Part shown: piece after piece, positions 2,921 to 57,461 of the stretch
Layout: each line of letters opens with the position of its first letter
Position numbering within the stretch: the stretch's first letter is position 1
From: Curvularia clavata
Lineage: Eukaryota
Assembly (NCBI GenBank): GCA_023920165.1
Contig: CP089274.1
Coordinates: 4,588,001 to 4,652,000, forward strand
Direction: 5' to 3'
Length of the DNA stretch: 64,000 nucleotides
The notes under the pieces: model-generated
What the model was told of the DNA's origin: nothing
What the model saw: the letters and a program-made list of their open reading frames with translations, nothing else
The model's database searches: none
Made by a program: the position numbers and the translations under genes

Positions 2921-5900
2921 TCAATTGTCGATGCCAAGACCAAAATAGTCCCCGGGGGCTTGCCGCCCTGTATGCGTCCCAGGACTAACTTCACCTTCGC
3001 CAGGACTAACACTGTCGCTCTCTCCCGACATTCCGCCAACGCTTTCAGCCCCAAATTCGTCGCCTAGTCCCCCCAGTCCGGCCAACGCACGATGTCCCCT
3101 CAACGGTACATTGAGCCGAGTAGAATCAAATGTGAAATGGGACTGGCCCACACCAGATTGTGCTGACGGCGTCTTCAGCTCGACAAGCTCCAGCGTGCTT
3201 CGGAGCGTCGCGCCTGACTCGTCCAGAGCCATGAGAAACCGCGCTAGTTCTTTACATAGCTCCCAATCACGCTCGTCTTTGGCACATTGTAGTAAGCGCA
3301 CTACCTGGTCTCCCGTAGCCCGCAGCTCTTCAAACGTGTGCAGTACCAACAGGTAGCCGCCCGCAGTCTTGAGGTTCCCTTTTTGGAGTGATTCCTCAAA
3401 CAGCTCTTCCGGTGGTGGTAGATTGGAGAATAGAGTTCTCCACGAACGCACCTCAGTCTTGCGAGTACATTGCACCACAATGTCAAGATACTGAGGGAAC
3501 GAACTCAAGAACGACAGTACGCTTGGCAGTAGTGCTTGCTCAATTGGTGGTTGAGTATCAACCTCTTCGTCCAATACTTCATGCAACAAAATCTCCAGGG
3601 CATGAGGAAAGTACAGCAAGTGCTGATAGTGATGGCTGAGATGCAGAGCTGCAGGGTGATTGAATTGAGCCAAGTGAGAGCGCAGCAATGCAGGGAGAAA
3701 CAAGTGGGTCTGCCGTATATGTCAGCTGGCAAGCACTCAAGTGCTGAGAGGCGCAAAGAAACTCACCCTTGTTCCAAAACGCAAAAAGGCAAAGTTTGTG
3801 TCCCTGCGCTGGATCAATTCCGACTCGACACCAAAGATAATGGCCTTGTTGATCAATGCAGAGAGGGGGTAGAAGTCGACGGGAATGTGTACCGGCGTGG
3901 GCAGCTCTCTGCCAATCTCGGGAGACACCGAAGCCAGGACGTCTTGCATATCGATCCACACTCGCATATTTTGGCCATCAAAAAACCACAGCGAGTCGCG
4001 TAAATCGTGCCCATGCATGCCATCCAATGTCAGCCCTACAGAAGGACTGGGCGGTAGAGAGTCCACCTGCATCTCGAGTGCAAAGGCAGGATGGTCGCGC
4101 ATGAGAGCATACGTCTCGACGTTTTGTGCAATAATGCGCATTTCATACTTGAGTTGACCGCCTTCTGTCGTAGTTGGCTGCAGCAGTACAAGTTTGCCAT
4201 CTACAAGAAACAATATCGTGGCTACCGACACATCTTGCGACGGGTCTCCACTGTCTACAATTTGTCAGTATCGGCGCCGCCGTTGTCTGATACAACTTAC
4301 GCATCTGGTCTTCGGGCAGGATCCAGCTGAGTGCTCGCACTCGTGGGGGCGCGCGGATAATGCCATGCAGCGCAATTTGGCCAACCTGAACTAGCTTGAC
4401 GCTGGCGTCTGCAACACTAATGACATAGTGGTATAGAACGTTTTCGTATGTATAGACCAGAAGTGAATCCTCTCCTGATGGCGCGATCAGAACAATTGGT
4501 GCAGGGAGCTTCTGCACATGCATGACACGGCCCTTTTCGAGAGCCGACTCTCGAGAATACACCCGGATCTAGACGTTATCAAGTCAGCATGGGCCATGCA
4601 GCATGTCTCACATTGAGCATACCTCGTGAGAGTCCTGACACTCGACTGCTGCAATCAGAACATGCTGAAACCAGCACATGCCCCCTCGGACAGTGAACTC
4701 GTTCTCCCCGAATGGGTCATCAAACATTTTCCAGCGCCCGCTATTAACGCTATAATGCGCAAGTCCTCTTTTGCCTGCTATGGCGACGTACCGGCCATCG
4801 TTTGAGATGACTGCACTTCTGATTGGCCACTGGTCAACGAGATAGGCCGAAGGAACCTGCACGTGGTGCCACAGAGAGACATCAGCCGAGATTGTCGTCA
4901 GGTCTGGAAGGTCATAGCCGCGGTAGATCATGAAGCCGGTGCTGGTCTGCATCAAAGAACGTGATATGTTGGCGGATGAGAAGCAACCAGTGACGGCGCT
5001 CCGAGCCATCTCTATGGTGTAGAGACGGTTCTCGTTGTTGGCCAACATCAAGAGTTCGGCGCCACCGCCGATCCAAATGGCCTCCTTGATGCTAAGAAGC
5101 CATCCCTCTTTGTTCGTTTCAGAGAGTGCCCTGTCTGCGGTGAAACTGGTAGCACCAGGCTTGCCATATACGCTCCACATTGCCCAGCCATTCTCATAAC
5201 CAGCAAACAAACAGTACCCATCGGGCGAGTAGGTAAGGATAGTCAATTGCCCAGGCGACGTGGTATTCGGGCGCAGCTTGTGAGAAAGAGGAATATTACC
5301 TGTGTAGTCCTTTGCAGTGTATACGAATACCTCCCCACTGGCGCTTCCAACTGCAAGCAGAGAGAATCGTGCATTGATTGCGGCCTTGACCCCTCTGTCC
5401 GCATCAGCCTCGGGCATGTGAAAGCCGTGCCCGCGAAACATGTTGGTTTCTGCGCTGTCTTTCTTCGTAGCTTTCTGGACGGCAAAGGCACGCCCGTCAT
5501 CAGTGATCCAACAAGATAGGTTCATAGGCCGGTCATGAACCATATCACGCAGTGCCGTCTTTTTTCCAATCCACGCCATTTTGGATAACAACTCGGTGCT
5601 CGTTTGGTTCCCAGTGCTGTCAGGGGCCCATCGAATGCACTGCACTGCGGCAGGCTTCTCCGTTGCAACAATCAGTTCATCATCTAGAGCGAGGGCTCGT
5701 ATTATTCCAGCGTCAACCCGTATGACCATGCGGAAACGCAGACTGAGCTCCGTGAAGCCATTGCCCTCTCCCGGCCCCGCATTGGTATCATGCTGCCGTT
5801 GTATCTTGAAGCCAGTGATTGCACTGCCTCTTCTTGTATGTCCTCCATGTGTGTTTGTGAATTGGGTCTTGTAGACGCGTGATGAACGATCTGTCGCAAG

Positions 5901-7052: not shown

Positions 7053-7151
7053 GGTGAGATGGCCGAGTTGGTTATGGCGCCAGGTTAAGGTTATCTTAAC
7101 ATCATATTCCTGGTCACGAAAGTGGCGTGGGTTCGAGTCCCACTCTCATCA
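7053..7151 (+). tRNA. tRNA-Leu(AAG) with canonical 17-nt intron (7091-7107)
   Basis: Acceptor GGTGAGA/TCTCATC, anticodon arm CCAGG-TT-AAG-G[intron]T-CCTGG, long variable arm, intact GGTTCGAGTCC B-box and a T-run near 7186-7195. Confidence 0.93.
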
Positions 7152-7711: not shown

Positions 7712-8987
7712 ATGTCTGGTAATTCTAATTCAGACATTCTTATTGTGAGTGACTAGCTATATTGTCTACACAGGTACTTGCATGCGCGCCGTTGGATGGT
7801 ATACATCCAGACCTGCAGTGAGTACGATTCATGTATCTGTGGGGAGAGAACAGTATACTCGGATATATCAGTAAATGATAGCTGATGAAAAGAAAATAGG
7901 CTGGCGCAATCGCAGCCTTCACAGTTGATCTGCTTGTATACCCCCTCGACACACTGAAAACACGCATTCAATCTCCAAACTATGCAAAGATATACACGAA
8001 TCCTCAGACGGGGAAGCCCAATCCAGCACTATTCCGCGGTGTGTATCAAGGAATCGGAAGTGTAATAATCGCCACATTACCGTCTTGTAAGTAGCCTGCT
8101 CTTACTTCAATGTATTATTTCCAGCTTCATCACGAGATTTTGCGAGAAGAATAATATCAACCTGAACAACCCATCTGACACACACTTTAGCAGGAGCCTT
8201 TTTCACCACCTACGAGCGCACAAAATCCCTCTTTACACGCCTTAACACCACCACCAATTCGCCCCATGGCGTCCTCCCCATAGCCGTAATTCACGCCTCA
8301 GCCTCTTCCCTCGCTGAACTCGTTTCCTGTGCCATCCTCACCCCGGCAGAAGTTATCAAGCAAAATGCTCAAATGGTCTCTTCGTCCTCCTCTGCCTCTA
8401 ACGCCACTCTTCAAACCCTGTCTAAATTCCGCTCCAATCCCCTCGCACTGTGGCGTGGCTACACGGCTCTCGCTGGACGAAATCTACCCTTCACAGCGCT
8501 GCAGTTCCCGCTGTTGGAGCGCCTGAAAGAAGGGATTAAGCGGTACCGCGACGACCGGGGCCTGACGCGTGGCACGGTAGTGGAGAGCGGGTGCATCACG
8601 GCGTTTAGCGCAGGGAGCGCGGGTGCGGTTGCGGCTGTACTAACGACGCCCGTGGACGTCATCAAGACGAGAATTATGCTTGCGGCGGCTGAGAATTCAC
8701 CGTCGTCTTCGTCGGCGCCGGGGGGAAATGAACAGGGTGCCAAGCAAGCGCTCAAGAGTGCGGCGCAGAGTCTTGGTTCGGGACAGGAAAACGGGAGAAA
8801 GAGCAGTTGGAAGATTGGGCAGGAAATTGTGGCAGAGAAAGGACTCAAGGGTTTGTGGAGGGGCGGGGCTTTAAGGGCGGTATGGACGTTTATGGGCGCA
8901 GGTTTGTATCTAGGTGCGTACGAGAGTGGGAGGGTGTATTTGGCTAGTCGGAGAGGAGAGAAGCTGGATGAGGAAGATTTGCTGTAG
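7712..8987 (+). CDS. PET8: Mitochondrial carrier, S-adenosylmethionine carrier (Pet8/Sam5)-like
   Basis: Three carrier signatures (YPLDTLKTR, TPAEVIKQN, TPVDVIKTR) plus RNLPFTALQFP; two GT-AG introns in the 5' part. Confidence 0.8.
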
Positions 8988-9700
8988 TTAGGGCTGCAAT
9001 GAGAAAACACCAGTACGAATGGAGTACCAGAATATCTGGCGCCAATCATGGGTCTATGTTACGTTGAAATAGCTAGAGGGCAGGAGGATAGTGTGGAAGA
9101 TGTCTAACGAAGAGAATCTTGCTCAGGGTTCTGAAGAGACAAGGCTAGTATTTAGCAAGAAGAAGCTGAAATACACTACTGCTCCTGCAACTGCTAAGTA
9201 TCCTTGTTATTGCATGGTGACTATCGGCGACTTTCACCTCCTCGCAACAATATTCCAGAGCATGAGGGAAATATCACCTCACAAGATTGTCTCGCAACGG
9301 GGCGACACATTCCACTTGAAGTTAAGCACGACTTCAATGGTCTATAAATTAACCATTCTTCAAGCTGTGATTGTTTTCAGAAGCACATAGCTAGACCTAC
9401 CAACATGCGCTGGTCTTGAGTCAATCGAAATGGGTATAGAGCTTCAACCCTTGTAAAAATGGAGAAAGTCGTGCAATTATGTGACTGTAGTTGAGGTGCT
9501 GTAACGAACCAAAGGCTCTTGTAGCATGAAACAAGAACGTCAGAGCGAACGCAAAAAATCATCCTGGGTACAAAGACGCCATGCCATTATCACCAAAGAT
9601 AAAACTACCTGGTTTGGATCAACTTTAATCCACCTCCACCTTAACTATCCACCGCCTCCAGTAGGAAAGAGAGGCAAAAAGAAAGGTAAAAAAAGAATGT

Positions 9701-9848
9701 TGACAAGAGTGGGATTCGACTGTTGTGAATTAGCAAGGTTATTGTTGAAGCTAAATGTGGATATAACTTACACCCACGCCCGTGAAGACTGCGGAGGATG
9801 TTTAGAACGACCTAAACGCAGCGCCTTAGACCACTCGGCCATCTTGCC
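9701..9848 (-). tRNA. tRNA-Leu(TAG) with a canonical 16-nt intron (9795-9810) plus a 52-nt GT-AG spliceosomal-type insertion in the T-loop (9720-9771)
   Basis: Minus strand: GGCAAGA TG GCCGAGTGGTCTAAGGC G CTGCG TT TAG G[tcgttctaaacatcct]C CGCAG TCTTCACGGGC GTGGGT[gtaagt...gctaat tcacaacag]TCGAAT CCCAC TCTTGTC A; T7 run at 9688-9694. Confidence 0.88.
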
Positions 9849-10292
9849 TTAAGTAATTTATGAAAATCCGAGAGTTTTTAGCAAATATAATGGTGGGCAA
9901 AACCGCTAGGTCTCGATCTATCCATTAGCGTCTAGCATCTCGGCCCCCTCAAACCCCTCCTTTTTGGTTTTCATCAGATGATACGCCTCATTTTCGCGTC
10001 CACAAAGAGCGGGGCATTCGCTTGTACCTGCCCCGCTTTATTCCGAGCCGGCTTCAAGACACTCGACACAACCATCATTTGGACCAAGTTAGCAGGGACC
10101 ACTTCCAGACTCTCATTTTAAGTCATCTCCTGTGCAGACTGTAGCCATCTTATCCCCTTGTCGCTTTACTGGATTCACTTCGTTGGTTACCACCTACCAC
10201 CTATTCCTTACCGCTTTTTGACTTCACCTTACCTCCAAGGACAACGAATTTTCTGGAAGAAATTCGCAGAAAATTGAACGTCTTACGCAGCC

Positions 10293-10718
10293 ATGCCACC
10301 TCCGTTAGATGACCTGTTACTCTCTGTAAGTCACCAGGTGCATAGCCGGGTGTGCATGTTGATCTTCAGTTTCGCACAATGAAGCTTGCATACTGTAGCA
10401 TGATTATTTTAACATGTGTTTACGCTACTACTGTAGCATGGAGCTCTACATACACAGTATCAAATAAATCAGAGAACTTCCTTACAACTAATCCTGTCTC
10501 CATTTTAGCTTCTGTGACGCTCGTTCAGCGTGTCACTAACGACAGCACAGCTTCAGACATCCCTCCGAAACGCACTGGCGACCTTTGGGGCTGGCAGTAC
10601 GCAATACCGTAACATCAAGCTCATGGTCGACGAGCACATGGCTAAGCTTGCTATGGAAGGATTATCACTGACCTCGGGAGAAGCGCAAAAGGTTGACGGG
10701 GATGTGTGCATGGATTGA
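10293..10718 (+). CDS. Small (~66 aa) two-exon hypothetical protein
   Basis: GCCATG start, 11-codon exon, GTAAGT donor, CTAAC branch site and CAG acceptor in phase 0, continuing into LQTSLRNALATFGAGSTQYRNIKLMVDEH... Confidence 0.6.
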
Positions 10719-25982: not shown

Positions 25983-27864
25983 ATGGCTGCAGATACGGCC
26001 GAAGCGCAGCCGCGCACAAGTCTCGACTTCGTGGAGAGTTCTGTGCTGGAAGCTGTCGTCCCTGCAAAGTCTGAAATCGACATCAAGGACGCCATCGAGT
26101 CTTGGGACGGAATAGCAGATGATAATGGTTCCATATTGCCTTTCCTGGCACAGCGGCAGGTCCTTCTTCTTGGTATGTGCTCAGCAAGTCACCAGCGCCT
26201 GCATGTCTCTTACTCATACGTAGGCGTTTAGATGAATTACTGGCTGTATATGTTGTCTTTCGGACACCGCTGTTGGAGGACACCATCCTCAAGGCCTATC
26301 TAGCAAGATTAGTGGTCAATGTGGAAGCATTCGCATTCAGCACTGCTCCTCCACCTGAACAAGATCCCAAATCAGGGTCTCCCAAGGAGCTCATTTATTC
26401 TGGTACCATTAAGTCCACGGATGAGCCGACTATGGTGACCCGTGGCAAAGGTGATGATGCTCATACCTTTGTCATCTGGAAGGTTGATATCTTCATCGGT
26501 AAGGTCCACAGATTGCTATACATGCTATGTCTAATATCCAGTAGCCCGTCCTCAAGGCAGGTTTCACAAGCCTGCGGTTTATTTCCAACCTACAGCTTCG
26601 TTCAAGCCTGCTGAAAAGCCCGAACAAGACGCACTGGAAGATGACTACCTCCCAAGTCGTGTGCCAGTGCCGTTCAATCTACTCCAGTCATTTGAGAACG
26701 ACCCTGCTCTTGCTGGTGTTCACCCCCGGCTTTCAGCCATGCGTATCAGCAAAGTCACGCCAAGTGCCCCTATTGCAAAGGAAATGGTCCGCCCCATTCG
26801 GAATGGGCAGAAACCCATATTCAGGGTGCTGCCACCTCTGATGTGGAGGGTGAGACATTCAAGACTCCACGCTTCACTCAATGATCTCTCTTTGATCACC
26901 TCCTTGGACTTGGAAGTCGCTCAGTTTGCTACATATGAGGTTAGAATTAAAAAAGTCGCCTTAACATTGCATGGAGGCAAGACCAAGGAGTTGAGCCAGG
27001 AACAAGATGCATCAGTTAGCCACAAGCCTGGTGATCAACTGACATATCTGTACAAGACTATACCAGACCTTGCCCCGGACGGAACTCCAGCCCTCGGGAG
27101 TAAGGGTCATTATCTGACCTTGAATATTGAGGCTAGCGTCACCATGTCTAGCGATTGCCGACCGGATATTACTATTGAATGGAAAACACCTGTCGATTTT
27201 GCTTCCGAACAGATAGCCGGTCATGCAAAAGCTCTTCACCGCCCCAGCAGCTCTATGAGTCAAGCGACAAACGCATCCAACCCGGATGCACTTCATGGTT
27301 CTGATTCCCAAGAGCAGCATGGACACACGCTCCCGAGCAACGATGTGAATGTCACGCTTACAGTTTCTGGGCCGCCCAGTGTTCATGTTGGTGAGATCTT
27401 CACGTGGGATGTCTTCATTGTAAATCGGTCCGACAGAATGCGAAGGCTGGCAATCTTGGTTATTGTCAGACGGCCACGAGATGTTGAGAAACACAGACCA
27501 CAGTCATCTGCGTCATCCGTAGGCGGACTTCGTGCAGACAAACGAGAGCTGCTTGCAACCGCGATCACGGATGAGAATGTTGTTTATGCTAAGCAGAAGA
27601 GTGCGAGGACAGAGACAGCGGACCTGATCTGTTTGACAACCGACATACGCGTTGGGTACGTAAGCCAAACTGACTAGTTGCGGACCGAGAGTGCTAATCA
27701 TATGTAGGCAACTTTCACCTGGTTCATGCTACACAGCCGATCTCAAGTTACTTGCGCTTACTGCAGGCGTACTGTCTGTGGAGTCCATACGTGTTGTCGA
27801 CCTAGTCACCAACGAAGCTGTAGATATCCGCGACTTGCCCAGCATTGTTGCTGTAGCACCATGA
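25983..27864 (+). CDS. TRS65: TRAPP II subunit Trs65
   Basis: C-terminal VGEIFTWDVFIVNRS, LICLTTDIRVG..LSPGSC..LKLLALTAGVLSVESIRVVD; 3 introns. Confidence 0.85.
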
Positions 27865-56792: not shown

Positions 56793-57342
56793 GACGACTG
56801 GTTAAAACTGAGGAAAGAGGTAAAGATGCTAAAGGTGCGCAAAACGTGCATGGATTGCTCTAGGGTGATGACAAAGGTAGGTACCGGGCAAACAAGAATG
56901 CTGCGTTGGTTGAATCGGGTCCAAACGCGCCTGATGACATCCGAGGACTCCGCAATAGCCAAAGAACTGTGTTGTTGTCCGAAACACGTGGGGTAGAACA
57001 AGCCTTTCGACTTGAGCACCGCGCCCTGCAGCTCAGTGCGATTTGGAAATGGCACTTTAGTCACTATCTCATTGCCTATAGTATAGTCTCTGAGAAGTAC
57101 CCAGTAAGAAAAGAAATGGATAGTGGCAGACGCAACGTTTCTCACCAGCTACTGTGTGCCGTGTTATTCTATCAAGAGCGCCATCTGTATTTGTCTCAAC
57201 TACAGAGTACACAATGCTCCTGTTTCCTTTCTCTGCGACAGTCAGACCCTTGAAGCCATAGCCAATTTAGTTGTTTAGGAAGTTGCGCCCAGCTTGCACA
57301 TGATCTCCACGTGACTTGGGCAAAAAGATCAAAAAGTCAAAA

Positions 57343-57461
57343 ACATACGACAGTGGGGATTCGCCAGTGGTCACCCACCTGACTACTAGTCCACCGGTCT
57401 CGAGCTTAAGTATGATTGATCGAACGGGGAATCCTGCTTCCTCGAGCCTATGGTCGTATGT
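57343..57461 (-). rRNA. 5S rRNA (dispersed copy)
   Basis: 119 nt ACATACGACCATAGG...TAGTAGTCAGGTGGGTGACCACTGGCGAATCCCCACTGTCGTATGT, followed by T-runs; ATATAAAT at -27 to -20. Confidence 0.95.

Follow-up and report, generated by a model that had tools for sequence, protein, structure and literature searches.

A probable spliceosomal intron in the T-loop of an ascomycete tRNA-Leu(UAG) gene

A tRNA-Leu(UAG) gene with two interruptions

The 64-kilobase (kb) stretch of contig CP089274.1 analysed here (the window, with positions counted from its first letter) contains a tRNA-Leu(UAG) gene which raises the question of whether the spliceosome can take part in making a tRNA. The gene, on the minus strand at 9701-9848, is interrupted twice, by a small intron in the usual place next to the anticodon and by a 52-nucleotide (nt) insert in the T-loop that has the signals of a spliceosomal intron. 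Eukaryotic tRNA introns lie between N37 and N38, and the available portion of PMC10275265 contrasts their removal with that by the spliceosome; the four-subunit tRNA splicing endonuclease (TSEN) of fungi and animals is described, in the accessible part of PMC10485636, as removing only such 37/38 introns. We consider it likely that the nuclear tRNA-Leu(UAG) gene described here, from an ascomycete, is functional and that its 52-nt element is a true spliceosomal intron of the U2 (GT-AG) type. The original prediction, made from the sequence, had proposed just such a spliceosomal-type intron besides the TSEN intron, and that interpretation is now supported by excision in silico, by a joint in RNA, by conservation of the site and the signals, and by covariation in the acceptor stem.

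Every sequence detail of the gene and its insert as first described was reproduced at 9848-9701 of the minus strand. The parts are as follows.

9701..9848, minus strand: the whole tRNA-Leu(UAG) gene, class II, made of three exon pieces, a canonical tRNA intron and a spliceosomal-type intron (span of the Rfam tRNA model; called Leu(tag) by ARAGORN after excision)
9811..9848, minus strand: exon piece 1, with the 5' strand of the acceptor stem, the D-arm, the 5' strand of the anticodon stem and the loop through UAG-G37 (from the sequence and ARAGORN)
9795..9810, minus strand: canonical TSEN-type tRNA intron at 37/38, 16 nt (intron called by ARAGORN; kept in the RNA contigs; identical in the metagenome locus L006)
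9772..9794, minus strand: exon piece 2, with the 3' strand of the anticodon stem, an 11-nt variable region, the 5' strand of the T-stem and T54 (from the sequence and ARAGORN)
9720..9771, minus strand: 52-nt spliceosomal-type intron between T54 and T55 (from the sequence, the RNA contigs and branch-site statistics)
9701..9719, minus strand: exon piece 3, with T55-C56 and the rest of the T-loop (TCGAAT), the T-stem strand CCCAC, the acceptor strand TCTTGTC and the discriminator A73 (from the sequence, ARAGORN and 7/7 acceptor pairs)
9688..9694, minus strand: T7 run of the RNA polymerase III (Pol III) terminator type, 6 nt beyond the gene (from the sequence)

The stems are those of an ordinary leucine tRNA. 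The acceptor stem has the 5' strand GGCAAGA, the anticodon stem is CTGCG/CGCAG with the loop TT-TAG-G, and the T-stem strand GTGGG is followed by T54 and ends at 9772. The A box, in the D-arm of exon piece 1, is intact as the A-box-like sequence TGGCCGAGTGG, and the 16-nt canonical intron contains CTAAAC, the complement of the anticodon-loop word GTTTAG. Within the insert the donor GTAAGT occupies 9771-9766, the branch site GCTAAT (as TGCTAAT) lies at 9734-9729 and places the branch A (9730) 10 nt before the insert ends, and the acceptor CAG is at 9722-9720. The insert has the sequence marks of a U2-type intron, namely a GTRNGT-like donor, a CTRAY branch site and an HAG acceptor. It has no notable structure (a fold of -3.2 kcal/mol, compared with -2.7 +/- 1.9 in shuffles), and no second copy of the 52 nt was found in the 64-kb window or in ten metagenome loci described below, where only chance 10-11-mers match.

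It had been predicted that standard tRNA finders would probably miss this gene. ARAGORN finds no tRNA gene at 9701-9848 in the intact stretch, and a whole-window scan with the Rfam tRNA model at gathering settings misses it as well. When 9720-9771 is removed exactly in silico, a comparison that the prediction had itself suggested, ARAGORN goes from nothing to a clean call of tRNA-Leu(tag), 80 nt long with a 16-nt intron. With lax filters the Rfam model spans exactly 9701-9848 and scores 29.9 bits (the gathering score is 29), leaving a 55-nt gap in the T-loop. The only other tRNA gene in the window is an ordinary Leu(AAG) at 7053-7151 on the plus strand, which has a 17-nt canonical intron and an unbroken T-loop and scores 48.7 bits in Rfam.

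Removal of the insert from RNA

Public sequencing runs were searched with positions 9500-10000, and contigs of runs X8, X9, X1 and X7 were aligned to the stretch. The run kind 'RNA?' given for X8-X13 is an automated guess, and the contigs come without strand, transcript ends or rare forms. In X8 (organism A, study P8, 'RNA?') a single 376-nt contig covers 9500-9719 and then 9772-9874, and X9 (organism A, study P9, 'RNA?') likewise has one contig, of 326 nt, over 9500-9719 and then 9772-9862. In both, 9719 is joined directly to 9772 and exactly 52 nt are skipped, with ends that read CT..AC on the plus strand and hence GT..AG on the strand of the gene. No letters are shared at the 9719/9772 joint in either contig, and a template-switch artefact is therefore unlikely. 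The contigs that lack the insert retain the 16-nt canonical intron, along with a 5' leader of at least 26 nt (X8) or at least 14 nt (X9) and the region beyond the T-run. Thus, the 52 nt are removed exactly, from GT to AG, from RNA that still has its leader, its trailer and its canonical intron. The spliced junction expected from the sequence, 9772|9719, is found in RNA contigs of two studies and is absent from the DNA run X1 (organism A), where the whole stretch lies in a single contig with no joint. The spliced RNA has the following minimum extent.

9448..9874, minus strand (strand taken from GT..AG): minimum extent of the spliced RNA in public runs, from 9874 to about 9448 in X8 and from 9862 to about 9486 in X9

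The two low ends were computed from the lengths of the contigs beyond 9500. They give a spliced transcript of at least about 375 nt, which runs at least about 240 nt past the T-run.

The shares of sampled words from 9500-10000 that each run holds bear on the same question. The DNA runs X1 and X2 (organism A) hold all of them, the six 'RNA?' runs X8-X13 (organism A, two studies) hold 0.41-0.48, and X21, a run of the same study, holds 0.00. The predicted share is 0.48-0.51 for a spliced transcript, 0.68 for unspliced RNA, 0.78 for DNA lacking the insert and 0.95 for DNA with the insert. The shares of 0.41-0.48 in the six runs, together with the 0.00 of X21, therefore argue that these runs contain RNA, not DNA, and that the transcript assembled in each of the six lacks the 52 nt. 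For X10-X13 it is solely the word shares that indicate the absence of the insert, and positions 9875-10000, uncovered in X8 and X9, enter solely through this arithmetic. Organisms B-D hold 0.61-0.83 of the same sampled words, and six leaf-litter metatranscriptomes (X14-X19) hold 0.11 each.

The RNA contigs differ from the window at one place. The T-run is T7 in the window and in X1, and T8 in X8, X9 and the DNA run X7 (an extra A behind 9687 on the plus strand), which reflects either a strain difference or a homopolymer error. A DNA contig of X7 that is identical to the window over 9501-9759 has the T8 allele and, with it, 40 nt of the insert, so that this allele and the insert do coexist in DNA. 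The same run contains the uninterrupted Leu(UAG)-like gene of a different organism, in which 33 other letters stand between 9719 and 9811; its T-arm is the same, its canonical intron and variable arm are different. The depth of this run on the 5' half of the tRNA reaches about 10,000 and comes from many organisms. No second piece from the DNA contigs of organism A (X1) aligns to the stretch, only the single contig, a result that covers near-identical copies. Because X7 revealed the uninterrupted gene of another organism, a near-identical intact paralogue in X1 should have shown in the same way.

Interrupted leucine tRNA genes and introns for comparison

A scan of metagenomes for a T-stem plus T54, GTRNGT, a gap, YAG and the rest of a T-arm returned ten loci, which correspond to six distinct genes; the number of chance matches to this pattern is less than one by our own rough estimate, which assumes a size for the collection. 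All six are class-II leucine tRNA genes interrupted at 54/55; four of them are Leu(UAG), one is Leu(CAG) and the last is probably Leu(CAA). ARAGORN finds nothing in any of them with the T-loop insert in place. After excision of the insert or inserts it calls Leu(tag) in four and Leu(cag) in one; the remaining gene, L002, is miscalled and was read by hand as Leu(CAA). The interruption in the window is thus more than chance, in that six other distinct genes have one at the same site and RNA contigs skip the same 52 nt. The six genes are listed here by locus.

L006: Leu(UAG); canonical intron of 16 nt; T-loop insert of 55 nt; exons and canonical intron identical to those of the window, flanks unalignable by blastn
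L001, L003, L007 and L008 (one gene): Leu(UAG); canonical intron of 22 nt; T-loop insert of 56 nt
L004 and L009 (one gene): Leu(UAG); canonical intron of 15 nt; T-loop insert of 50 nt
L005: Leu(UAG); canonical intron of 25 nt; T-loop insert of 49 nt; second insert, of 51 nt, in the D-loop
L010: Leu(CAG); no canonical intron; T-loop insert of 56 nt
L002: probable Leu(CAA), read by hand; canonical intron of about 40 nt; T-loop insert of 55 nt; D-loop insert of 49 nt

Two of these genes are therefore interrupted three times, by a D-loop insert, a 37/38 intron and a T-loop insert.

L002, 1386-1610, plus strand: gene with three interruptions
L005, 2493-2696, minus strand: gene with three interruptions

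The two D-loop inserts lie outside the search pattern. Both are placed at GCCGAG|...|TGG, inside the A box; they start with GTCAGT and GTATGT, contain AACTAAC and TGCTGAC, and end with AAG and TAG. ARAGORN calls L005 as Leu(tag) only once both of its inserts have been removed.

The branch site was likewise outside the pattern. A CTRAY word is present in all nine inserts, with its branch A 10-13 nt from the 3' end, while shuffled interiors have it in a mean of 1.29 of nine and in all nine in 0 of 2000 trials. Apart from the splice signals the interiors of the inserts are unrelated (most z values are below 1.5, and the maximum is 3.8). The original prediction had proposed a look at orthologous loci for conserved splice signals, and in the other fungi the site and the signals are indeed kept and the interior has diverged.

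Excising candidate introns from the window and the ten loci and rescanning them gave 287 candidates and 11 junction-spanning calls, all in genes already known. Brute-force single excision thus uncovered no further hidden tRNA in the window or in the ten loci; L002 needs both of its inserts out. A pattern with an unconstrained insert gave no match in viral contigs, and its one match in genome contigs, L011, was rejected as a chance match in GC-rich bacterial coding sequence with no tRNA.

The tRNA fold appears to be under selection in these genes. All seven of them (the window and the six others) have 7/7 acceptor pairs and A73, and an alignment of the acceptor, D and T stems is paired in 105 of 105 cells, compared with 34-57% in slid controls. 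The invariance of the T-stem is a product of the search pattern and is not independent. In the acceptor stem, six of the seven pairs have changed on both sides (11 cells), which 0 of 500 shuffles reach. The compensatory changes are C-G/U-A at 3-70, A-U/C-G/G-C at 4-69 and A-U/G-C at 7-66.

A protein exon of the window (10518-10715, plus strand) recurs about 0.4-0.6 kb from the tRNA gene in L006, in the L001 group and in L005, with amino acid identities of 72% in L006, 68% in L001, L007 and L008, and 58% in L005. Pfam assigns this exon to no family. Because the neighbouring exon is common to them, the four Leu(UAG) loci (the window, L006, the L001 group and L005) are orthologous and belong to well-diverged species. 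It follows that the 54/55 insert is old and that the compensatory changes arose among genes that already carried it. Covariation of this kind among insert-bearing orthologues is hard to reconcile with pseudogene status. The orientation of the exon varies: the tRNA gene lies upstream on the same strand in three metagenome species and is inverted, head to head, in the window.

The introns of protein-coding genes in the window offer a further comparison. A de novo search for GT..CTRAY..HAG segments joining long open frames returned 31 candidates, many of them doubtful and with weak donors, and serves as a consistency check only. The subset used for this check combines a strong donor with long frames on either side, and its members are 48-62 nt in length. 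The 52 nt of the tRNA insert fall within this range, and the earlier statement that size and signals match the mRNA introns of the window agrees with these putative introns. A candidate Trs65 intron at 27656-27707 (plus strand) is itself 52 nt long, reads GTACGT...TGCTAAT...TAG and has its TGCTAAT 10 nt from the end, in agreement with the tRNA insert in both branch heptamer and spacing. The frame upstream of it matches the Pfam family IgD3_Trs65, and this match breaks off right at the candidate donor, having reached profile position 123 of 172; the frame downstream has no match in Pfam. The claim that a TRS65 intron uses GCTAAT is thus correct as to the word, which is found as TGCTAAT, within what is for now a candidate intron.

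As to the other genes of the window, the open reading frame at 8373-8987 encodes a mitochondrial carrier (Pfam Mito_carr), in line with the carrier-type neighbour first proposed. The frame at 4608-5729 on the minus strand is RIC1-like, and its nearest protein-atlas cluster is mainly from Ascomycota. The window also contains a dispersed 5S rRNA gene at 57342-57461 on the minus strand (Rfam, 75.5 bits).

Transcription, maturation and rival explanations

How could such a gene be transcribed and its RNA matured? Upstream of it lies one further element.

9883..9889, minus strand: TATATTT word, about 35-41 nt upstream of the 5' end of the tRNA, with a presumed promoter function

A similar TATA-like word (at about -40) is present upstream of all interrupted homologues and of the ordinary Leu(AAG) gene. 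All homologues have a downstream run of T5-T8, and all keep the A box. The window gene has an unbroken A box and a T7 run, but its B box is split by the insert. The word TTCGA occurs mid-insert, in a B-box-like context, in three of the seven T-loop inserts (8 of 5000 shuffles reach three); these B-box-like words, at offsets 21-25 from the donor, are GAGTTCGAAT, GAGTTCGATT and TAATTCGACT in the inserts of L006, L005 and L010. In addition, CCAC is found 12-20 nt into several inserts (those of the window, L006 and L002), where it could pair with the 5' strand of the T-stem in a predicted fold. The TTCGA words and CCAC may represent an intronic promoter element, as in the U6 gene of S. pombe, or a trace of the origin of the insert.

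The spliced RNA starts about 9 nt downstream of the TATATTT word, or upstream of it, and reads through the T7/T8 run. It looks like an RNA polymerase II (Pol II) or read-through transcript. The terminator assigned in the original prediction is accordingly present, as a T7 run 6 nt beyond the gene, but is not used as a terminator in the RNA seen. The A box, the T-runs, an upstream word like that of a normal tRNA gene and the B-box-like words in three of seven inserts would together fit transcription by Pol III, for which the U6 gene of fission yeast, itself with an intron, offers a parallel. Models with a Pol II precursor and with a Pol III precursor are both left standing.

In the pathway that we propose, the precursor would be transcribed with both interruptions. 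The spliceosome would then remove the 52 nt by way of GTAAGT, GCTAAT and CAG and rejoin T54 to T55, and only after this rejoining could the elbow between the D-loop and the T-loop form. The ordinary pathway would finish the molecule, with RNase P, RNase Z, TSEN and ligase at 37/38, and addition of CCA. Because a split T-loop (and a split D-loop as well in L002 and L005) blocks the elbow, the enzymes that read the mature tRNA body, TSEN included, would be expected to act only after splicing. This order, with the spliceosome before TSEN, matches the contigs, in which the insert is gone and the canonical intron is kept. The exact removal is observed; we infer that the spliceosome is the agent, that the later steps follow in this order and that a mature, charged tRNA is the result.

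Several points weigh against this reading. The RNA seen is a longer transcript with the canonical intron still in it, while a lariat and a mature, charged tRNA that serves in translation are predicted products. This RNA reads through T7/T8 and starts too near the TATA-like word for a normal Pol III primary transcript, and it could be a by-product rather than a productive precursor. Pol III promoter function should be weakened by the insert in the B box and, in L002 and L005, also by the second one in the A box. A single T in the T-run sets X8 and X9 apart from the window, which points to another strain, and the kind of these runs is guessed; contigs are blind to rare forms, and unspliced RNA may exist unseen. 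The donors and acceptors of the metagenome T-loop inserts were forced by the search pattern, and the independent evidence is confined to their branch sites, to the inserts in D-loops and to the tRNA context. Finally, a second, uninterrupted Leu(UAG) gene of different sequence may exist elsewhere in the genome.

Some of these points could also be explained if the gene were a pseudogene, inactivated by the insertion and lying in a Pol II transcript from which the insert is spliced as in any non-coding RNA, with no tRNA made. The RNA seen is at least about 375 nt long, keeps leader, trailer and canonical intron, and ignores the T-run; the B box is split; and no mature tRNA was observed. We nevertheless regard this explanation as improbable, since the exons of the window gene and L006 are 100% identical despite flanks that blastn cannot align, the acceptor pairs are 7/7 in all seven genes with compensatory changes among syntenic orthologues, and none of them has lost A73, the A box or the downstream T-runs. 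Between species in which the neighbouring protein exon is only 58-72% identical, a gene without function would not have held on to a perfect cloverleaf. A near-identical intact copy in organism A should have shown, yet a single DNA contig of that organism aligns to the stretch. It is more doubtful still, indeed very unlikely, that the joint reflects a DNA polymorphism, with the strains behind X8-X13 lacking the 52 nt in their genomes through precise intron loss or possession of the ancestral allele. An uninterrupted allele would yield an identical joint, and X8 and X9, one T off the window in the T-run, do not represent the sequenced strain and are of guessed run kind. However, DNA run X7 combines the T8 allele with the insert. 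Orthologues from at least three other species have an insert at this site too, so that it is old and a loss must have been both recent and precise. Moreover, a short transcript accounts for the word shares (0.41-0.48) and for contigs that end at 9874 and 9862, whereas insert-less DNA predicts a share of 0.78, and the same joint occurs in two independent studies.

The two remaining explanations have, in our view, only the slightest chance of being correct, and about the same one. The insert might be a non-canonical tRNA intron cut by the tRNA splicing endonuclease through a fold resembling a bulge-helix-bulge (BHB), the GT...AG being coincidental. Introns in D- and T-loops, several per gene, are known for the BHB type (available portions of PMC10485636 and PMC8450103), and permissive scoring leaves room for a weak motif. 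Scoring of the inserts found a full 4-bp central helix in none, with 18 registers tried, and no score above shuffles, in a test that is too permissive to decide (shuffles too reach about 6.7 of 10 pairs when the best of 18 registers is taken, and it failed to single out the canonical introns, which were included as a positive control). What argues more directly against such a fold is that all nine inserts have a branch site at 10-13 nt, which BHB introns do not need, that the RNA contigs lost the insert yet kept the canonical TSEN intron, and that the insert lacks a notable fold; fungal TSEN is also reported to be restricted to 37/38 in the portion of PMC10485636 at hand. Alternatively, the insert might be a recent mobile intron, an introner-like element that landed by chance in a tRNA gene and is tolerated there, and introner-like elements multiplying in fungal genomes are described in the accessible parts of PMC3609843 and PMC4457414. 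No other copy of the 52 nt is found in the window or the loci, however, and at 52 nt without a stable fold the insert is unlike these elements, which are longer than regular introns and stably structured (PMC3609843, in part). The same orthologous site also holds unrelated interiors, which indicates age and not a recent arrival.

A genuine spliceosomal intron in a functional gene thus remains the reading that we prefer, and it can be extended beyond the window. An ascomycete clade probably makes leucine tRNAs by obligatory spliceosomal splicing, perhaps including the only Leu(UAG) gene of the genome, from genes with one or two GT-AG introns in the A and B boxes (at 15/16 in the D-loop and 54/55 in the T-loop) in addition to a TSEN intron.

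Relation to known introns and significance

The closest analogues are the introns of fungal U6 small nuclear RNA (snRNA) genes, for example in Schizosaccharomyces pombe. Spliceosomal introns of U6 genes number up to four per gene and have conserved signals and unconserved interiors (accessible portion of PMC5855946), and the S. pombe intron contains a match to the B box (Frendewey et al. 1990, cited there), which resembles the TTCGA found in three of seven inserts here. In contrast to U6, the host of the present intron is a tRNA and not a component of the spliceosome, and a TSEN-type intron lies in the same gene. Because of this difference in host, the account of intron origin by reverse splicing into an RNA at the catalytic centre is not obviously applicable. 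The hosts of spliceosomal introns listed in that portion of PMC5855946 are the U6, U2, U5 and U1 snRNAs and rRNA genes, with tRNA unmentioned. The spliceosomal introns of ascomycete rRNA genes (Bhattacharya et al. 2000, cited in PMC5855946) also interrupt a structural RNA gene that is not transcribed by Pol II, but their host is an RNA polymerase I gene with a large RNA product.

Other interruptions of tRNA genes differ from the 52-nt insert in position, signals or mode of removal. The window gene carries a canonical 37/38 intron of its own, 16 nt long and complementary to the anticodon loop, and both interruptions must go before the tRNA is complete. Whereas TSEN-type introns lie at 37/38, the insert lies at 54/55, has GT...AG and a branch site, and is gone from RNA that still has the canonical intron. 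The BHB-type introns of archaea, red algae and nucleomorphs likewise interrupt D- and T-loops, occur several to a gene and are missed by standard finders; they were found because tRNAs seemed to be missing (available portions of PMC10485636 and PMC8450103). For red algae, the same part of PMC10485636 describes non-canonical tRNA introns and notes that the eukaryotic mode of tRNAscan considers canonical introns only. BHB-type introns, however, are recognised by a local bulge-helix-bulge and cut by an endonuclease, whereas the inserts described here have full spliceosomal signals and no convincing BHB. The self-splicing group I introns of bacterial and plastid tRNA genes are also removed by RNA catalysis and not by a protein endonuclease. 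They are usually associated with tRNA-Leu, and group I introns in tRNA genes were reportedly treated by Reinhold-Hurek and Shub in 1992. Unlike the present insert, which is 52 nt long, unstructured and in the T-loop, group I introns are hundreds of nt long, have a ribozyme fold and lie in the anticodon loop.

The full-text literature searched yielded no description of a tRNA gene with a spliceosomal intron; most subscription journals and supplements lie outside that literature, and an earlier report is possible. The accessible parts of PMC12530127 and PMC3879985 contain nothing relevant. Spliceosomal introns in structured RNA genes of the Pol III type are thus known, and a tRNA host is the first as far as the literature searched shows. 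The tRNA interruption is conserved across several fungi and several isoacceptors, and a single gene can hold as many as three introns, which fall into two mechanistic classes.

A GT-AG intron that is conserved in tRNA genes and precisely spliced breaks the rule that tRNA introns lie at 37/38 and are removed by a protein endonuclease and not by the spliceosome (as put in the available portions of PMC10275265 and PMC10485636). If our reading is correct, tRNA would be added to the few structured RNAs in which spliceosomal introns occur (the U6, U1, U2 and U5 snRNAs and rRNA), and a new class of tRNA gene interruption would have to be recognised, with up to three introns in an RNA of about 80 nt. 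It would explain why some fungal tRNA genes are missed by standard finders, and possibly why certain isoacceptors appear to be 'missing'. The finding makes several questions testable: whether the spliceosome acts on Pol III transcripts besides U6, how introns enter non-coding RNAs, and how two splicing systems are ordered on one small RNA. Either the spliceosome would routinely act on Pol III pre-tRNAs or these tRNAs would be matured from Pol II transcripts. In both cases the supply of a decoding tRNA would be tied to the activity of the spliceosome, which would offer a natural handle on the coupling of translation capacity to splicing.

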